DNA from: a virus
Taxonomy: Duplodnaviria > Heunggongvirae > Uroviricota > Caudoviricetes
Virus record (IMG/VR): IMGVR_UViG_2778261545_000003
DNA: 37,682 bases
Direction: 5' to 3' (one strand)
The notes under the pieces were generated by a model, which was not told the origin of the DNA, did not search any database, and was given only the letters and a program-made list of their open reading frames with translations. Below, in pieces: positions 1,054 to 34,827 of this stretch. Position numbers and translations under genes: made by a program. The number at the start of each line of letters is the position of its first letter. Positions within the stretch are counted from its first letter, which is position 1.

Positions 1054-1078
1054 AAAAAAGCCCTCATATCAGAGGGCT
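1054..1078 (-). terminator. Intrinsic terminator-like hairpin directly abutting the int start codon
   Basis: On the minus strand AGCCCTC-tgatat-GAGGGCT followed by TTTTTT and then the int ATG; sits between the cargo ORF stop (1140) and int. Confidence 0.5.
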
Positions 1079-1139
1079 AAATTTAACTGTATATTTAAAC
1101 AGTTATCAATGTATGTTTAGGGTGAAATAAACATTGGCC

Positions 1140-2129
1140 TCACTCCTGTGCTTTTTCAGCGGTACTTGGCTTTAGTTTTTCTTTGGTTGAATCCCATAAA
1201 GATTGGATTCCCGGAGGGAGTTCTGTTTTGTCAGAAAATGCAGAGTTACCAGACATATTCCAGTCTTTAAAGACTAACACAGCATCTTCTTTTGTTGACG
1301 TGGAACCATAAATTTGCAGGAATACTTGCCCAAACATTAGTGCATGTCTTCTATCTTTTCTCAAAATTGATTCATGGGTATATTTTTTAGAGTTGCCAAG
1401 GCAAATATATGCTAGCCAAGAAAGAATGGAAATACCAATTAAACCACGTGTGAAAAAATAAAATAGCTCAAAGCCTTTAACATTGTTGAAGTCAATTGTG
1501 GCGTAGAGTGTATAAAATGATGCACATACAGCAAGTAGCCCAAAAATGCAGCCAGTAAAAGCCCATACTTGCGACATTTTAATGAAATATAAGTCATCTG
1601 AACTTAGTTCACTTTTAACGCTATCGACATATCCTGGTATTTTCTCATCAATCCTTTCTTGTTGTACTCGGCTTTGTAATTCGCTGTTAGATGCTTCAAG
1701 TTGCTTTATTCTAGATACGGCTTGCTCAATAATTGCTTCTTTTTCAGAATTTAGTTTTTCTAAATTCTCATTCCGAAGATGTAACGTAGCTTTGGACTCT
1801 TCAGCCTCCAATAAACGTTTGGTATATGATCGCATTATCTCTCGAAGATGTTTTTGTTCTTTTATTAATTCATCTATCTTATTGTTTTCATTAATAAAAA
1901 TATCTCCAGCTTTATCGCTGTAGTTCATTTTTTCTTGCTGGGCTAATTTCCAGTAGTATTCTCTGAATTTATCAAGTTCACCTTTTTTTAATAAGTCGAC
2001 TAAGTAGGCGCGTTCATTTTCATTAAATTTATGTAGATTTTCATTTAAAATATTATAAAGATCTTTCCATTCGCAATTAACTTTTTCAACATAATCGTTG
2101 TTTTCATTTTTTTTATTTTCAGAATTCAT
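1140..2129 (-). CDS. Cargo protein, N-terminal coiled coil plus two predicted transmembrane helices (candidate superinfection-exclusion/abortive-infection effector)
   Basis: ORF in the track is 1140..2207; the internal ATG at 2129 has an AAGGA Shine-Dalgarno and avoids overlap with cI. Product about 329 aa; N-terminal 200 aa rich in E/K/L/N heptad-like sequence, then hydrophobic stretches (VWAFTGCIFGLLAVCASFYTLYA and LFYFFTRGLIGISILSWLAYICLG). AT-rich relative to neighbours. Confidence 0.6.
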   Translation of the reverse strand: MNSENKKNENNDYVEKVNCEWKDLYNILNENLHKFNENERAYLVDLLKKGELDKFREYYWKLAQQEKMNYSDKAGDIFINENNKIDELIKEQKHLREIMRSYTKRLLEAEESKATLHLRNENLEKLNSEKEAIIEQAVSRIKQLEASNSELQSRVQQERIDEKIPGYVDSVKSELSSDDLYFIKMSQVWAFTGCIFGLLAVCASFYTLYATIDFNNVKGFELFYFFTRGLIGISILSWLAYICLGNSKKYTHESILRKDRRHALMFGQVFLQIYGSTSTKEDAVLVFKDWNMSGNSAFSDKTELPPGIQSLWDSTKEKLKPSTAEKAQE

Positions 2130-2139
2130 GTATGTTCCT

Positions 2140-3078
2140 TTAAATTTCCTTTGAAAAAACGCAACAACATTTTGCGATGGTTGTAATGTCTTCAAGCTTA
2201 CAAACAAAATCAGTTGTATCTGATGTGATTTTTACTTTTCCAACTGGAATTCTTGTTAATTTTCTTAAACTTACTTTACCTTCAATCTCAATCAACCAAC
2301 TACCATCTGAAACATCATCATATTCTGTATCTGCAATAAAGGTTTTTCCTTCTGCGGTAACTCCAATAGGTTTTTTCAATCCGGAAGGTATAAGCGTCTT
2401 GTCAAATGCTAAGTAGCCTTCATCATGTAATTTACCGTCAATGATTGTTTGGTGTTTAAGTTGGGCTACAGAGCTGGAATTATCGATAAATTTGGGGCCA
2501 TTGCCGTTTGTGAGCCAGAGTAATGAAGTTCCTGTTTCAAGAGCGCATTGAATGATCCAATCGCTAGGAAACGTGTCTCGTAAGTACCTGTTTGCTACAG
2601 TGCTTTTTGAAACCTGCAAATGGTTTGCTAGGGCTTGTCGGGTGCTAAAGCCGTAGGCTGCGACTAAGCGATCAATTGCCGCCTTCCCTCCTTTATTAGG
2701 ATTTATGCTGGTCTCGATTGGGAACTTTTGGGCTATTGAGTTAGTTCTATCCAGGTCATCAGATTTGGTATGGGCTAAACGTTCATCATTTAATAAAACT
2801 GAGGATGATTCACAGCTGATTCCCGATGCCAACCAGTCGATAGATGCGCCGGTCTCTATACTGCAAATTATCACCCAGTCAGCAGGAAATGTGTCACGAG
2901 CATACCTGTTAGCCATCGTGCTTTGTGAGATACCCAGATGATTGCAAAATGCTTGCCGCGAAGTAAAACCATACGCAGCAAGTATACGCTCAATTACTTT
3001 CTGTCCCCCACGGTTTTGCATTATTGAAGTTTTTAGACTCTCGCTAATATGGCGAAATGTGTTTTTTTGAGTTGACAT
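2140..3078 (-). CDS. cI: 186-type CI-like immunity repressor with tandemly duplicated N-terminal DNA-binding domain
   Basis: 312-aa ORF divergent from apl/cII. Two about 60-aa repeats (VIERILAAYGFTSRQAFCNHLGISQSTMANRYARDTFPADWVIICSIETGASIDWL and AIDRLVAAYGFSTRQALANHLQVSKSTVANRYLRDTFPSDWIIQCALETGTSLLWL), about 60 percent identical, matching the phage CI-repressor N-terminal HTH pattern. Confidence 0.7.
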   Translation of the reverse strand: MSTQKNTFRHISESLKTSIMQNRGGQKVIERILAAYGFTSRQAFCNHLGISQSTMANRYARDTFPADWVIICSIETGASIDWLASGISCESSSVLLNDERLAHTKSDDLDRTNSIAQKFPIETSINPNKGGKAAIDRLVAAYGFSTRQALANHLQVSKSTVANRYLRDTFPSDWIIQCALETGTSLLWLTNGNGPKFIDNSSSVAQLKHQTIIDGKLHDEGYLAFDKTLIPSGLKKPIGVTAEGKTFIADTEYDDVSDGSWLIEIEGKVSLRKLTRIPVGKVKITSDTTDFVCKLEDITTIAKCCCVFSKEI

Positions 3079-3087
3079 AACCGTTAT

Positions 3088-3125
3088 GAGATCCTAATCT
3101 CCGTTTTGTGAAGTTCTGGTCACAA
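3088..3125. promoter_or_regulatory. Candidate operator inverted repeats in the cI-apl switch region
   Basis: GAGAT-ccta-ATCTC (3088..3101) and TTGTGA-N8-TCACAA (3106..3125) lie in the 88-bp gap between divergent cI and apl. Confidence 0.3.
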
Positions 3126-3166
3126 TTCAAACCGGCTCACCACAAGCCAATAGGAGATGTTGCATC

Positions 3167-3388
3167 ATGACCCCTAACATTTCAATAACTCTGAATACGC
3201 CACATGTCACAATTGAGCGTTATAGCGAACTTACTGGTCTTTCAATCGATACAATTAACGATATGCTGGCTGACGGTCGCATCCCTCGGCATCGCCTTCG
3301 GAAAGACAAGAAAAGAGAAAAGGTGATGATCAACCTTGCTGCTCTTACCGTTGATGCACTTACTGATTGCAATGTTGTATTCAACTAG
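3167..3388 (+). CDS. apl: Apl/Cox-like excisionase and switch regulator (small HTH protein)
   Basis: 73-aa ORF with AGGAG RBS, first gene of the rightward operon divergent from cI; HTH-like segment [24 protein letters not shown]. Confidence 0.6.
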
Positions 3389-3420
3389 TTCCATTTTGGG
3401 ATACATCAGGGGTATCGACC

Positions 3421-3930
3421 ATGTTTGATTACCAAGTTTCCAAACATCCACATTTTGATGAAGCCTGTCGTGCATTCGCATTGCGCCACAACCTGGTGCA
3501 ACTGGCAGAACGTGCTGGCATGAATGTGCAGATTCTGCGGAACAAGCTGAACCCATCTCAACCTCATTTATTAACCGCACCAGAAATCTGGCTGCTTACC
3601 GATCTGACTGAAGATTCAACGCTGGTAGATGGTTTTCTGGCACAGATTCACTGCCTGCCATGTGTACCGATTAATGAGGTTGCAAAAGAGAAACTGCCGC
3701 ACTACGTCATGAGCGCAACTGCAGAGATCGGACGTGTTGCAGCAGGTGCGGTATCTGGTGATGTAAAAACTAGTGCCGGTCGTCGTGATGCTATCAGCAG
3801 CATTAACTCTGTAACACGACTGATGGCGCTGGCTGCTGTTTCATTGCAGGCCCGTTTACAGGCTAATCCTGCGATGGCGAGTGCAGTTGATACCGTGACT
3901 GGCCTCGGTGCTTCATTCGGTTTGCTGTGA
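3421..3930 (+). CDS. cII: CII-like lysogeny-establishment activator (186 CII family)
   Basis: About 170 aa from the ATG at 3421 (SD AGGGG); position after apl and size match 186 CII; resemblance to 186 CII is from memory. Confidence 0.6.
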
Positions 3931-3937
3931 GGTGCTT

Positions 3938-4138
3938 ATGCTGACGAAAGAACCATCATTTGCATCGCTGCTGGTAAAACAAAGCCCGGCAATGCACTAC
4001 GGTCACGGCTGGATCATGGGTGAGGATGGTAAACGCTGGCATCCGTGCCGTTCACAAGATGAATTGCTGGCAGAACTATCTACGAAAAAACGGGGGAACA
4101 AATGGCTATTGAAGGCGCTGCGGCGACTGTTCCATTAA
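3938..4138 (+). CDS. Hypothetical early protein
   Basis: ORF with GAGG RBS upstream of ATG 3938; early operon position (186 fil/dhr region); no recognisable motif. Confidence 0.4.
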   Translation: MLTKEPSFASLLVKQSPAMHYGHGWIMGEDGKRWHPCRSQDELLAELSTKKRGNKWLLKALRRLFH

Positions 4139-8328: not shown

Positions 8329-8348
8329 TACTGTAAATATAAACAGTG
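8329..8348 (+). promoter_or_regulatory. LexA box (SOS operator) overlapping the promoter of the tum/dinI-like operon
   Basis: TACTGTAAATATAAACAGTG matches CTGT-N8-ACAG exactly; TTTACA -35-like hexamer at 8306..8311 just upstream. Confidence 0.8.
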
Positions 8349-8389
8349 GTTATGCATACAGTGTTGCTTGTGGTGTCATAGGAGGAAAA

Positions 8390-8578
8390 ATGCAGGACTA
8401 TTTTTTGGAGTCTTTGAAGCTCCAGCGCATTGATTTTTTTCTTAAGCTTGTAGCGGCTAGTGAGTGTAGTGATGAAGAGAAGGGGCTGGCTCTGCAGTGG
8501 GTTTCTGAATTGACTGATGAACTCATGGCAAAGATCAGAATCCACGAATACAGCCGCTCAATGGATGTCATCAGTTGA
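8390..8578 (+). CDS. Small protein in SOS operon (possible Tum-like antirepressor component)
   Basis: 62-aa ORF from the ATG at 8390 with GGAGG RBS, immediately downstream of the LexA box. Confidence 0.4.
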   Translation: MQDYFLESLKLQRIDFFLKLVAASECSDEEKGLALQWVSELTDELMAKIRIHEYSRSMDVIS

Positions 8579-8588
8579 GGTGACTTTT

Positions 8589-8822
8589 ATGCGCATTGAA
8601 ATAATGATCGATAAAGAGCAGAAAATTAGCCAGTCTACCCTGGACGCCCTTGAATCCGAGCTTTACCGCAATCTGCGCCCCCTGTATCCCAAAGCGGTAA
8701 TTCGTATCCGTAAAGGTAGCTCTAATGGTGTGGAACTGACCGGACTGCAACTGGACGAAGAAAGAAAACAAGTGATGAAAATTATGCAGAAGGTGTGGGA
8801 AGACGACAGCTGGCTGCATTAA
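8589..8822 (+). CDS. DinI-family protein
   Basis: 77 aa, MRIEIMIDKEQ...LDALESELYRNLRPLYP...VWEDDSWL resembles E. coli DinI; SD GAGGTGA before ATG 8589. Confidence 0.75.
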   Translation: MRIEIMIDKEQKISQSTLDALESELYRNLRPLYPKAVIRIRKGSSNGVELTGLQLDEERKQVMKIMQKVWEDDSWLH

Positions 8823-10176: not shown

Positions 10177-11091
10177 ATGCCATACCAATTGGTAGAGCTT
10201 AGCCCCGTAGCTAACGATCTTGAACAGTTAGGAACCAAAGAGAAGTTTTGGTTCTATTTCTCCGATGACACTGTAAATTTGCAGTTGTTTAAGTACTCTA
10301 GGCCAGGTACTGGCGAGCATTGGTCTGAAAAGTGTGCTGCTGAGTTATGTCATTTGCTTAACATTCCACATGCTAGCTATGATTTGGCGCGATACAATGG
10401 TCGATTCGGTGTGGTGACTCAGAATATCATTCCATCTGGTTTCCGGATGGTAATGGGAAATGAAGTGCTTCACAGTTCGACATTCGATTATCCTGGGCCT
10501 TTACAAGCCGGGGAAAAGCCGGTAAGGGTCAGAGAACACACTGTCACAAGGGTCTTGGGTTGTTTAGATAGGGAATCTATCAAGCCTCCTCCGAGTGTAT
10601 ATGATCTAACCGGGCTAAATGCAGCAGATGTATTTTGTGGATATTTGATGCTCGATGCACTTGTGAGTAATCAAGATCGCCACCATGAAAATTGGGCAAT
10701 CATGCTTAACAATGAAACTGGTGAGCAGTTTTTGTGTCCAACATACGATCATGCCGCTAGTTTAGGAAGGGAGATGTTAGATGATGAGCGTAACGAACGG
10801 CTTAATACTAAAGATAAAAATCGACAAATCCCATGTTTTGTAAGAAAAGCTCGCTCTGAGCTATTCAAAGCAAAAACTGATAAAAAGCCCTTGCTGACTG
10901 TTGAAGCATTTCAACATGCAGTTGAAGGGAGAGTTGCCGCTCGCGACCATTGGTTAGGTAAGTTGAGCGTTTTAACAGAAGATTCCATTACAGATGTGTT
11001 TAACCAAGTGCCTTCATCGTGTATATCCGACAGTGCACGTAGATTTGCAACGTTAATGGTAATGGAAAATCGCAGAAGGTTACTAGAATGA
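10177..11091 (+). CDS. HipA-like / PI3-4K-like small Ser/Thr kinase (cargo)
   Basis: 304 aa; catalytic-loop-like LVSNQDRHHENWAIM (DRH..N) and downstream YDHAASLG (metal-binding Asp), plus N-terminal LGTKEKFW; AGGGA RBS; stop overlaps the next gene by 4 nt. Confidence 0.55.
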   Translation: MPYQLVELSPVANDLEQLGTKEKFWFYFSDDTVNLQLFKYSRPGTGEHWSEKCAAELCHLLNIPHASYDLARYNGRFGVVTQNIIPSGFRMVMGNEVLHSSTFDYPGPLQAGEKPVRVREHTVTRVLGCLDRESIKPPPSVYDLTGLNAADVFCGYLMLDALVSNQDRHHENWAIMLNNETGEQFLCPTYDHAASLGREMLDDERNERLNTKDKNRQIPCFVRKARSELFKAKTDKKPLLTVEAFQHAVEGRVAARDHWLGKLSVLTEDSITDVFNQVPSSCISDSARRFATLMVMENRRRLLE

Positions 11092-11828
11092 CTAATACAA
11101 ACTCCGTTTACGTCGCATGGCAGGCACCAGATACCAGAGACTGGCATGTTGTTGGTAACTTGCAAGAGCGCAAATCGGGGTATGTTTTCAGGTATACCAA
11201 AGGTGCTCTTAAATCTTCTAAATTTACAAAGTTTAGCGGCATGAGTGATGTTCGTGAAACTTATGTATCGGAAGAATTGTTTCCTCTTTTTAAAAATCGC
11301 CTTTTATCACCGAGACGTCCAGAGTATCCGAGTTTCATTAAATGGCTTGGATTTGAAGAAGATAAGGTAAATCCTATCGATATTCTTGCTCGCTCGGGAG
11401 GCTTACGAAGCACTGATCAGCTGCAGATTTTCAAAAAAATTGATTTTGATTCTGATGGTAACTTTGAGCATTTTTTCTTCTTACATGGACTTGGTTACTT
11501 GAATAGCTTAGCTAATGCTCGTGTATCTGAATTGAAACCGGGGCAAATTTTGCGTCTTTGCTTGGATCTTCAAAATGAATACGATGGGGATGCTGTTGTC
11601 GTTCGTGCAGATAAACCAGCTGAAATCGTTGGTTACTGCCCTAGGTATTTAAGTAATGACATCAAGAAGATGTTATTGGATGATCCAAAATCAATCACTT
11701 TAACGGTCGAAAAGATTAGCGATGATGCTCCTCATAACTATCGGTTATTATGTAAATTATCAGGGGTACTAAGCCAAGCCTGTCAATCGACGCTGATTCC
11801 TCAAGATGAGTTTGAACCTATTGAGTAA
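11088..11828 (+). CDS. Protein with C-terminal HIRAN-like domain (cargo, partner of the kinase)
   Basis: 246 aa; C-terminal LQNEYDGDAVVVRADKPAEIVGYCPRYLSNDIKKMLLD fits the HIRAN pattern (N.YD.nAi.V...........lGY.PR..........L); translationally coupled to the upstream kinase gene. Confidence 0.5.
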   Translation: MTNTNSVYVAWQAPDTRDWHVVGNLQERKSGYVFRYTKGALKSSKFTKFSGMSDVRETYVSEELFPLFKNRLLSPRRPEYPSFIKWLGFEEDKVNPIDILARSGGLRSTDQLQIFKKIDFDSDGNFEHFFFLHGLGYLNSLANARVSELKPGQILRLCLDLQNEYDGDAVVVRADKPAEIVGYCPRYLSNDIKKMLLDDPKSITLTVEKISDDAPHNYRLLCKLSGVLSQACQSTLIPQDEFEPIE

Positions 11829-20660: not shown

Positions 20661-21476
20661 TCATATTTTTAATTTTTTATGGATATGCTCCATCCCTAAA
20701 TTAGATATCTCTTTTTTTAGCTGGGTTTCACTTGCAGTTATCCAGTTTTTTCCACAGTTTGGTAGAAGCATCTCGCTACTTGACGGATTGATAAGTTTTA
20801 CTTTTTCATTCTTTATAATTTTGTTTTTCAAATAACTTTTACTTATTAAGGCTGATTTTTCAGTTATAACGAGATAAAAAAATATGCTTCCAAAAAATAT
20901 ACCTTTTAAAATAATACCGCTGCGTAACAGAACAGGGTCATTTTTGGTTATTCTCATTTTAAAGGGAGAGCAAAGGTTGTCTTCACTTGTAGGTATATTA
21001 AGTTCACTTTTTTGCTCGTCAGTAAGTTTAAGAGGCATGAGCAGTCCAGCGAAGAGCATGACATCTTTTTCTGAAGGCAAAGGTTCTCCGCGGAGAATAT
21101 AATCTTTATATGCGCCAAAAATATGTGTCGATGGATCATTGACCGCGCTTGCCGAGTTGTAAGAAATTTTCATTAACCAGCGTAGCAATAAATGATAATC
21201 ATAAGTTATAGTCGTTTGTGTCTTTAGATAAAGTTGGGTTAAGAAACCGTTTCTGGCTAAAAACTGACTTCCATAATCATCTAAAAAACTTAATGCTCCA
21301 CCATTGCATGTTTTACAAACATCGGCAATTGTTGCCTCACCACCAATTATATCATTTGCTCTCTCGTTCCAGCCTATAAAACGATCTCCAGATTCTTTTT
21401 GATATTTATATATAAATTTAGGGATAATATGTTCTCTTTCTATTATTCCATCTTGCTCGCAATATCTGCAGTGCAT
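20661..21476 (-). CDS. Cargo protein with N-terminal HNH-like (His-Me finger) nuclease motif
   Basis: 271 aa; CRYCEQ...EHIIPKF...GG...CKTCNGG arrangement typical of HNH endonucleases; strongly AT-rich, opposite strand, inserted between S and the V late promoter. Confidence 0.55.
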   Translation of the reverse strand: MHCRYCEQDGIIEREHIIPKFIYKYQKESGDRFIGWNERANDIIGGEATIADVCKTCNGGALSFLDDYGSQFLARNGFLTQLYLKTQTTITYDYHLLLRWLMKISYNSASAVNDPSTHIFGAYKDYILRGEPLPSEKDVMLFAGLLMPLKLTDEQKSELNIPTSEDNLCSPFKMRITKNDPVLLRSGIILKGIFFGSIFFYLVITEKSALISKSYLKNKIIKNEKVKLINPSSSEMLLPNCGKNWITASETQLKKEISNLGMEHIHKKLKI

Positions 21477-34518: not shown

Positions 34519-34608
34519 TTCTTCGCAATGGAGAACTTTTAAGTTTGCAAAATGGAATAATGCGGTATCATTATTGTGAATTTAGCAAAAATGGGGAGGA
34601 CTCGAAAA

Positions 34609-34827
34609 ATGATGATTTGCCCACTGTGTGGAAGTGCCGCCCATACTCGCAGCAGTTTTCAGGTATCTTCATTGACCAAAGAGCGTTACAACCAGTGCCA
34701 GAACATTAACTGCAGCCATACTTTTGTTACCCATGAAACTTTTGTTCGTTCGATTGCAACGCCAAAAGAGTCAAATCCGGTTCAGCCGCATCCAATGAAA
34801 TCAGGACAGGTGGCGCTCTCTCTTTGA
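34609..34827 (+). CDS. ogr: Late gene transcriptional activator Ogr (zinc finger)
   Basis: 72 aa from ATG 34609 (SD GGGGAGGA): MMICPLCGSAAHTRSS...KERYNQCQNINCSHTFVTHE, Cys4 pattern as in P2 Ogr; last prophage gene. Confidence 0.85.
   Translation: MMICPLCGSAAHTRSSFQVSSLTKERYNQCQNINCSHTFVTHETFVRSIATPKESNPVQPHPMKSGQVALSL

Follow-up and report, generated by a model that had tools for sequence, protein, structure and literature searches.

What do two DNA-binding heads do on one chain of a phage immunity repressor, and where did the additional head come from? The question is raised by an Escherichia coli prophage of the P2/186-like kind, recorded as IMGVR_UViG_2778261545_000003 in IMG/VR; the whole stretch of 37,682 nucleotides is referred to below as the window. 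Its cI gene, an open reading frame (ORF) at 2140..3078 on the minus strand, encodes a CI-like repressor of 312 amino acids (aa). The CI repressor of phage 186 is a textbook alternative to λ CI: it assembles as a wheel built from seven dimers, and its single head reads two kinds of site. The wheel model is described in bioRxiv 10.1101/2021.10.29.466366 and PMC3675496. Since a 186-type CI has one head per subunit of about 190 aa, and the window protein has two heads in 312 aa, the latter is most fittingly classed as a variant within the family of 186 CI, belonging to a large and unremarked subgroup with two helix-turn-helix (HTH) domains. On the best reading of the sequences, the extra head, D1, was grafted from another CI lineage along with candidate operator DNA.

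Two lineages of single-HTH repressors serve as references throughout. S1 proteins are about 207 aa long and are exemplified by P0099 from Salmonella diarizonae; Klebsiella phage ST13-OXA48phi12.1 is assigned to this lineage by alignment coordinates. S2 proteins are 186-like and about 198 aa long, with P0026 from Kluyvera as the example; Escherichia phage vB_EcoM-813R9 is placed here, again by alignment coordinates.

Architecture of the repressor

The gene, the parts of its product and its neighbours are as follows.

2140..3078, minus strand: cI, two-HTH 186-type immunity repressor; ORF of 312 aa with two PF07022 matches, one PF16452 match and an alignment to 2fjr
3013..3078, minus strand: N-terminal extension, residues 1-22; common to S1-type single-HTH CIs, with an AlphaFold2 (AF2) helix at 13-20 and a ratio of nonsynonymous to synonymous substitution (dN/dS) of 0.44
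2815..3012, minus strand: D1 HTH head, residues 23-88, S1-type; found by hidden Markov model (HMM), recognition helix SQSTMANRYAR, AF2 confidence (predicted local distance difference test, pLDDT) 80-86
2695..2814, minus strand: inter-head linker, residues 89-128; predicted disordered, AF2 pLDDT about 30 over residues 90-122
2497..2694, minus strand: D2 HTH head, residues 129-194, in the S2/186-type position; found by HMM, recognition helix SKSTVANRYLR, aligned with the N-terminal domain of 186 CI
2164..2460, minus strand: C-terminal oligomerisation domain, residues 207-305; PF16452 and Foldseek
1-1053, leftward with cI in the switch: int, neighbour of cI
3167..3388, plus strand: apl, Cox/Apl-like excisionase and lytic regulator of 73 aa; phrog_575, E=9.6e-32
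3421..3930, plus strand: cII (CP76), establishment activator; PF06892, E=3.6e-42, and phrog_101

In Pfam both repeats score as CI-type HTH domains, with PF07022 (Phage_CI_repr) matching two stretches of the protein (E=8.4e-55) and PF16452 (Phage_CI_C) matching once, at residues 207-305 (E=1.5e-30). A purpose-built HMM places the heads at residues 23-88 (D1) and 129-194 (D2). The heads are 58% identical (42 of 72 residues in the alignment, or 38 of 66 when the domain alone is counted), and their BLOSUM62 local score is 248 compared with 27.6 ± 4.7, and a maximum of 54, in 2000 shuffles. With a dN of 0.35 and saturation at synonymous sites, the two copies must have diverged long ago. An earlier note on this DNA, made from its letters, had described a CI-like protein of 312 aa with two CI-type HTH domains, roughly 60 percent identical, ahead of a C-terminal domain; these points are borne out.

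Structure prediction gives the same division. An AF2 monomer model, with a 31-sequence alignment as input, contains two five-helix heads (D1 at 13-85, D2 at 131-191) and a C-terminal domain (204-308) on a disordered linker; the predicted template modelling score (pTM) of 0.40 is as expected for independent domains. In Foldseek the modelled C-terminal domain superimposes on 2fkd_A with a template modelling (TM) score of 0.92 and a root-mean-square deviation of 1.8 Å. Residues 10-187 of 186 CI (PDB 2fjr) align to residues 134-310 of the window protein only (E=1.8e-32), and the approximately 125 residues that the latter has in excess are all N-terminal.

Compared with 186 more broadly (CI structures PDB 2FJR and 2FKD), the window has the same Pfam families and C-terminal fold, the same order of int, cI, candidate face-to-face promoters, apl and cII, candidate operators made from similar TTCAC/ATCTC-like half-sites, and a predicted SOS operon with a Tum-related gene. 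The differences are the added N-terminal residues, which bring a second HTH head and a disordered tether, a cI-apl spacer of 88 bp where 186 has 129 bp, the lack of detected FL- or FR-like sites in the window, and a Tum homologue that is split and whose N-terminal half is unrelated.

The ORF encodes the immunity repressor of a 186-type switch, and most probably a working one in an intact 186-like prophage. Its identification as the immunity repressor follows from the Pfam and PHROGs domains taken together with the neighbours int, the Cox/Apl-like gene and cII. As in the 186 family, cI and int run leftward while apl and cII run rightward out of a short spacer, and the cII ATG at 3421 lines up with the 186 cII start. 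The product is named 'phage repressor protein CI' by PGAP and a transcriptional repressor by PHROGs. Positions 1054-3400 are 100% identical to strains Ecol_224, MS6192 and others. Of 5426 complete E. coli genomes, 24 carry 80% or more of the gene and 21 have it at 95% identity or above, and relatives from isolated phages have the same two-head architecture. These occurrences leave next to no probability for a sequencing or assembly artefact (the earlier note had also discounted the latter) or for a pseudogene fusion of adjacent cI genes. While tandem cI genes are known in some relatives, the frame is intact, the gene recurs in isolated phages and in at least 21 E. coli genomes that are complete, the same frame is kept by over 40 diverged clusters, and purifying selection is evident.

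Ancestry and spread of the two-headed design

The earlier note regarded the two heads as a tandem duplication. That the copies are homologous and anciently diverged holds; duplication in place finds no support in this lineage, where the two are not each other's closest relatives. D1 is 85% identical to the head of P0099, compared with 58% to D2, and it also shares with P0099 the 22-aa N-terminal extension (the proteins start with MSTSNITLRHIGDNLKASIMQNRGG in P0099 and MSTQKNTFRHISESLKTSIMQNRGG in the window). D2 is 83% identical to many single-HTH CIs, and D2 together with the C-terminal domain is 77% identical to P0026, N-terminal tail included (KFPIETSINPNKGG versus KYPNEIKINPNQGG). In a tree of all heads, D1 falls with the S1 heads and D2 among the S2 proteins. 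Bootstrapping by neighbour-joining on Kimura distances joined D1 to S1 in 90 of 100 replicates and made D1 and D2 sisters in none of 100.

The DNA is a mosaic with corresponding boundaries, as compared by blastn:

2843..3112, no strand assigned: S1-like mosaic block, comprising D1 coding sequence, the candidate pR -35 and -10 and the candidate operator through GTGAA

This block is 76% identical to an S1 locus (L003) over exactly that span and stops right after the GTGAA at 3108-3112. On either side the window resembles S2 phages, at 79% identity over 1000-2728 and at up to 93.5% over 3066-4000. The linker-coding stretch, 2729-2842, has no DNA homologue in the S1 and S2 loci tested. The breakpoints are thus 2728/2843 and 3112. 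S1 phages supply the pattern for D1, the N-terminal extension and a TTCTC-N6-GTGAA candidate operator, and differ in having one head. The pattern for D2 and the C-terminal domain comes from S2 phages, as do apl and the spacer's right half; these phages differ in having one head and the palindrome GTTCCCATTTGGGGAC. Taken together, these comparisons suggest an ancestral recombination that put the N-terminal head and operator-bearing pR half of one lineage before the whole CI of another. A comparable graft is the engineered λ-186 hybrid repressor (PDB 7JVT), which was itself matched in the structure comparisons and shows that the 186 C-terminal domain can carry an N-terminal head of foreign origin; the hybrid swaps the head, whereas the window protein has a foreign head added before the resident one.

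A tandem duplication of the HTH-coding segment within a single cI gene, followed by long divergence, is by comparison very improbable for this clade. The heads are homologous and adjacent, as such a duplication would leave them. Yet D1 is far closer to S1 single-HTH proteins, extension included, than to D2, the bootstrap gives no support to D1 and D2 as sisters, and the mosaic brings D1 along with S1-like promoter and operator DNA. Duplication in place does appear genuine elsewhere: in a Shewanella protein (P0235) the heads share 70% identity and pair as sisters in 100 of 100 bootstraps, which suggests that the segment was indeed duplicated locally. The PSP3-type heads also group together, but weakly, with 14 of 100 bootstraps supporting a single in-lineage duplication.

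PSP3, a cultured 186-like Salmonella phage, has a CI of 286 aa (L106 701-1561) with heads at 16-76 and 101-166. Like the CIs of SEN1, SW9 and Escherichia phage Midge, it combines two PF07022-type heads and a C-terminal domain on one chain. It differs from the window protein in being only about 30% identical to it, and its own heads are 47% identical. Since those heads cluster with each other and not with S1 or S2 heads, PSP3 CI is probably of separate origin. In other groups (P0022, P0040, P0045 and P0046) the first heads cluster in the tree with yet other single-HTH proteins. The two-HTH architecture seems to have arisen several times via different routes.

It has also been lost. A protein of 208 aa on one metagenomic contig (P0049, at L109 1501-2127) looks like an intragenic recombinant between both heads of a two-HTH gene: it consists of helices 1-4 of D1, helix 5 of D2 and a P0013-type C-terminal domain, and it adjoins a two-HTH-type switch.

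A survey of repressor length in relatives indicates that the design is not peculiar to this prophage. Full-length two-HTH proteins of 290-330 aa make up about 46 of the 120 closest database clusters, and the rest are single-HTH. Several isolated Klebsiella phages, among them 4LV2017 and ST437-OXA245phi4.2, have two-HTH CIs with 50-54% identity to the window protein, and further examples come from E. coli, Citrobacter, Enterobacter, Salmonella and Edwardsiella. When 1.84 billion representatives were searched exhaustively, only 241 family members emerged at the 50% clustering level, about a dozen of them additional, more distant two-HTH proteins of 285-330 aa. Pfam finds two heads and a C-terminal domain in the distant members tested (Pantoea, Citrobacter, Edwardsiella, Hafnia, Enterobacter and Shewanella). 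A scan of genome contigs gave 14 loci, 2 of them two-HTH; a scan of viral contigs was far more informative. In the literature searched, no description of a two-HTH 186-type CI was found beyond a remark in PMC3448106, where PSP3 CI is described only as having a 'longer C-terminal domain'. The two-headed design appears to be undescribed, and annotation does little to expose it, as the proteins are all labelled 'repressor protein CI', which hides the difference in heads.

Some relatives have two repressor genes in tandem. At five loci (L064, L066-L068 and L085) a complete single-HTH cI faces apl and is followed, 50 bp downstream, by a two-HTH cI; in L066 the former encodes 191 aa (875-1450) and the latter 307 aa (1501-2424). 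The second gene, without a pR of its own, occupies the variable cargo slot that separates cI from int, and might serve for extra immunity or represent a fusion precursor. Because such pairs exist in relatives, a tandem cI pair may have been an intermediate on the route to fusion.

The switch region and the roles of the two heads

The spacer between cI and apl was given by the earlier note as 3079-3166, and it is indeed found there, with a length of 88 bp. It was compared with about 28 distinct two-HTH, 16 S1 and 9 S2 spacers. The candidate elements in and around it are:

3072..3100, plus strand: candidate lytic promoter pR, with -35 TTGACA at 3072-3077, a 17 bp spacer and -10 TAATCT at 3095-3100
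3157..3185, minus strand: candidate lysogenic promoter pL facing pR, with TTGAAA at 3185-3180, 17 bp and CAACAT at 3162-3157
3097..3112, no strand assigned: candidate primary operator ATCTC-CGTTTT-GTGAA, a 5-6-5 imperfect inverted repeat over pR -10/+1
3088..3092, no strand assigned: candidate flanking half-site GAGAT (GnGAw), between -35 and -10; all three classes of switch region (S1, S2, two-HTH) conserve it as GnGAw-CCTA
3119..3125, no strand assigned: candidate half-site GTCACAA (rTCACrA), flanking and inverted; two-HTH and S2 switch regions have it, S1 regions do not

The candidate pR overlaps the cI start codon with its -35, and the pattern TTGACAT-N16-TAwTCT/TAGTAT is common to all S1, S2 and two-HTH switch regions compared. 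The candidate pL was placed by position against the annotated 186 pL in U32222.

The assignment of the candidate operator draws on conservation and co-inheritance with D1. At fixed spacing, TCTC-N6-GTGA is present in 37 of 49 distinct D1-bearing switch regions, namely 27 of 33 two-HTH and 10 of 16 D1-only (S1) regions, whereas among S2-only regions the count is 0 of 9. The D1-bearing exceptions are for the most part one-base variants, start codons misassigned by the script, an S1 sub-type with CATCT-N7-AGATG, or second-copy genes without pR; all pR-adjacent D1-bearing genes have the 5-6-5 palindrome or a close variant directly after and overlapping the -10. Six of the 9 S2-only switch regions have GTyCCC-N4-GGGkAC instead, which is absent from all two-HTH switch regions, and no copy of the S2 palindrome GTTCCCATTTGGGGAC occurs in the window, even with 3 mismatches allowed. 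The half-sites of the candidate operator have the orientation of the annotated 186 FL and FR sites (TTCAC-N5-GTGAA). GAGAT and ATCTC together form GAGAT-N4-ATCTC, and GTCACAA lies at a variable 5 to 7 nt from GTGAA; it could be a half-site for CI D2 or a site for Apl. In all, four alternating half-sites about 10 bp apart span 36 bp inside the spacer.

Selection on the protein parts suggests that neither head is idle. Median dN/dS over 42 distinct genes comes to 0.066 (D1), 0.114 (D2), 0.70 (linker) and 0.45 (C-terminal domain), and mean pairwise identity among 31 two-HTH proteins to 81%, 77%, 19% and 35%, respectively. The recognition helices are nearly invariant, as SQSTMANRYAR in D1 and SKST(L/V)ANRY(M/L)R in D2. 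Both heads are under strong purifying selection and both look functional. The linker, which evolves almost neutrally, is rich in S, N, E, P, T and D and is held at 36-47 aa, looks like a tether constrained in length and not in sequence, and its hypervariable coding regions conceal no conserved DNA word.

A further aspect of this pattern is where the clade varies. Heads and candidate operators are highly conserved across it, and the C-terminal domain (residues 207-305) averages 35% identity. Diversification seems to act on oligomerisation or antirepressor interaction rather than on DNA recognition, which is unusual for immunity determinants.

With moderate confidence, the window protein may be regarded as a grafted working repressor, composed of an S1-type head, a flexible tether of about 40 aa and a complete S2/186-type CI, with D1 acting on the pR operator. 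Its C-terminal domain would dimerise and probably build a 186-like wheel. D1 would bind the candidate palindrome ATCTC-N6-GTGAA over pR -10/+1 and turn off lytic transcription of apl and cII; repression of pR by D1 is the most likely assignment from the sequence, and it is supported by P0049, which retains a two-HTH-type switch with a D1-type recognition helix only. D2, in the position of the single 186 head, might add avidity or immunity to a second phage class. In the former case it would fill the neighbouring half-sites GAGAT and GTCACAA, so that one four-headed dimer would cover four half-sites in 36 bp. In the latter it would keep an S2-type specificity and extend superinfection immunity to S2-type phages that share hosts, an option that fits the repeated origin of the architecture and the presence of a two-HTH cI as second gene in some prophages. 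The suggestion of the earlier note that two heads per monomer would change operator geometry and could define a distinct immunity is plausible; the spacer is compact, with its four alternating half-sites in 36 bp. A partial analogy is offered by the monomeric immunity repressor of a mycobacteriophage (PMC9283540), in which two DNA-contacting domains per chain also make asymmetric or extended sites possible; that repressor is from an unrelated family and has non-homologous domains, whereas the window protein carries paralogous heads on an oligomerising scaffold.

Several observations weigh against assigning D1 to a pR operator within a 186-like assembly. A sigma-70 scan reported neither pR nor pL; pR was missed because its -10 matches at just 3 of 6 positions, and the promoter calls consequently rest on conservation and analogy with 186. 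Since D1 is encoded only about 30 bp from the candidate operator, linkage could explain their association, and some S1-type phages with an identical D1 recognition helix have CATCT-N7-AGATG at the same place. In window-wide scans, GTGA/TCAC and GAGA/TCTC palindromes and degenerate half-site pairs were no more frequent than in shuffled sequence; 3106-3125 is the only place with the full two-HTH palindrome pattern, yet 20 of 100 shuffles also gave one match. The half-site motifs are too short for significance by themselves. GTCACrA always accompanies this apl type and its spacing to GTGAA varies, so it is possibly an Apl site, and flanking sites resembling FL or FR were looked for and none was found. 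Formation of a wheel is assumed solely from the similarity of the C-terminal fold. In the tree, the D2-plus-C-terminal-domain modules of two-HTH proteins interleave with single-HTH proteins, and the conservation of D2 could be due in part to repeated module exchange with S2 phages instead of selection within two-HTH phages.

Other divisions of labor between the heads fit parts of the same evidence. One tentative account extends the immunity option into a modular gain of immunity, whereby a heteroimmune head is fused ahead of a complete CI, or a second cI is placed in the cargo slot, and the phage controls its own pR through one head and a superinfecting second class through the other. It is rather unlikely that D2 is the operator-binding head, as in 186, with the tethered D1 as an accessory that contacts distant or weak sites for looping or wrapping or serves as a docking point or decoy for an antirepressor. 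D2 sits precisely where 186 has its single head and is joined to the C-terminal domain by the same short connection, the disordered tether that carries D1 has a conserved length of about 40 aa, and GTCACrA is common to two-HTH and S2 switch regions. Set against this, no two-HTH switch region has the S2-type palindrome, the pR -10/+1 region is S1-like and co-varies with D1, and the switch beside P0049 persists with a D1-type helix. Less probable still is that one head functions while the other is a passenger, kept through linkage or frequent recombination with single-HTH phages. The interleaved modules do imply frequent exchange, and P0049 is a natural derivative minus one head; however, dN/dS is near 0.1 for both heads at a dS near 1.1, their recognition helices hardly vary, free drift is seen instead in the linker and the C-terminal domain, and the architecture arose repeatedly and persists in many genera.

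Additional sites were considered as CI targets. The sequence GTTCCATTTTGGGATAC at the apl-cII junction was rejected as a flanking operator; it is uninformative on CI specificity because all of the S1, S2 and two-HTH phages have it and because the expected pE -10 falls on it. By eye, variants of the D2 recognition helix (ANRY versus ATRY) did not covary with GTCACrA. At 34565-34581, about 30 nt upstream of an ogr/B-type zinc-finger gene (ATG at 34609), GTATCATTATTGTGAAT resembles 186 FL/FR (ATTCAC-N5-GTGAAT) in its right half only and is a possible CI site at a late-activator promoter. In a close relative whose CI is 97% identical (L031, upstream of 1501), the pR-pL spacer contains GGCTCACCACAAGCCAAT as a tandem duplication of 18-19 bp, and the stretch from -35 to -10 is altered (TATAAGATTCAAATCTCC); this may represent a variant of the switch.

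Induction, neighbouring genes and significance

Induction of the prophage probably proceeds through an SOS-controlled antirepressor of the Tum/DinI-like kind and not through self-cleavage of CI. One source applies an S24, LexA/λ CI self-cleaving label to relatives. No S24 peptidase domain was found in the Pfam scan of CI at E<=0.1, and the C-terminal domain has only a distant fold likeness to LexA C-terminal domains (E about 1e-6, TM 0.5). Farther along the window is the following module:

8329..8822, plus strand: SOS module, with a LexA box at 8329-8348, a 62-aa ORF at 8390-8578 and a DinI-like ORF at 8589-8822

The LexA box, TACTGTAAATATAAACAGTG, is perfect, and the position of the module matches that of 186 p95/tum. 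The DinI-like ORF matches Pfam DinI (E=1.4e-22) and shares 40% identity with 186 Tum over the latter's C-terminal half; no similarity links the 62-aa ORF to the Tum N-terminus. By analogy with 186, the module is likely a Tum-type antirepressor operon for induction, and compared with 186 tum the antirepressor function appears to be split or replaced.

Three other parts of the window carry genes outside the switch. Between cI and int, 10 nt past the cI stop, a minus-strand ORF of 329 aa (1140-2129) matches phrog_2628 (function unknown; E=2.6e-88), has weak Pfam matches to a coiled-coil rod domain and to DUF2207_C (predicted membrane protein), and gave no match in a PADLOC scan. In relatives this slot holds other genes (DUF4747, YdcA-like and others), and it behaves as a cargo hotspot because gene content differs among them. 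Between the replication region and the portal gene, at 10177-11828, lie genes for a HipA-like kinase (10177-11091) and a HIRAN-domain protein (11088-11828); PADLOC matches them to the two components of a candidate defence system, PDC-M03 (E=2e-122 and 7e-93). Within the late-gene region, a 271-aa ORF on the opposite strand (20661-21476, minus) has a weak HNH_5 match only, is without a PADLOC match and may be a moron.

Nothing in the two-headed CI lies outside known principles; it is a natural and widespread two-headed version of a model repressor. If the C-terminal domain retains the ability to build a 14-mer wheel, the wheel would display 28 heads. If the design represents a modular gain of immunity, its repeated origins would reflect selection for broader immunity. 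The family thereby offers testable questions: how head number and tether length relate to operator occupancy on the wheel, how immunity modules consisting of a head plus its operator move between phages, and whether a prophage may widen its superinfection immunity through stacked heads or stacked repressor genes.

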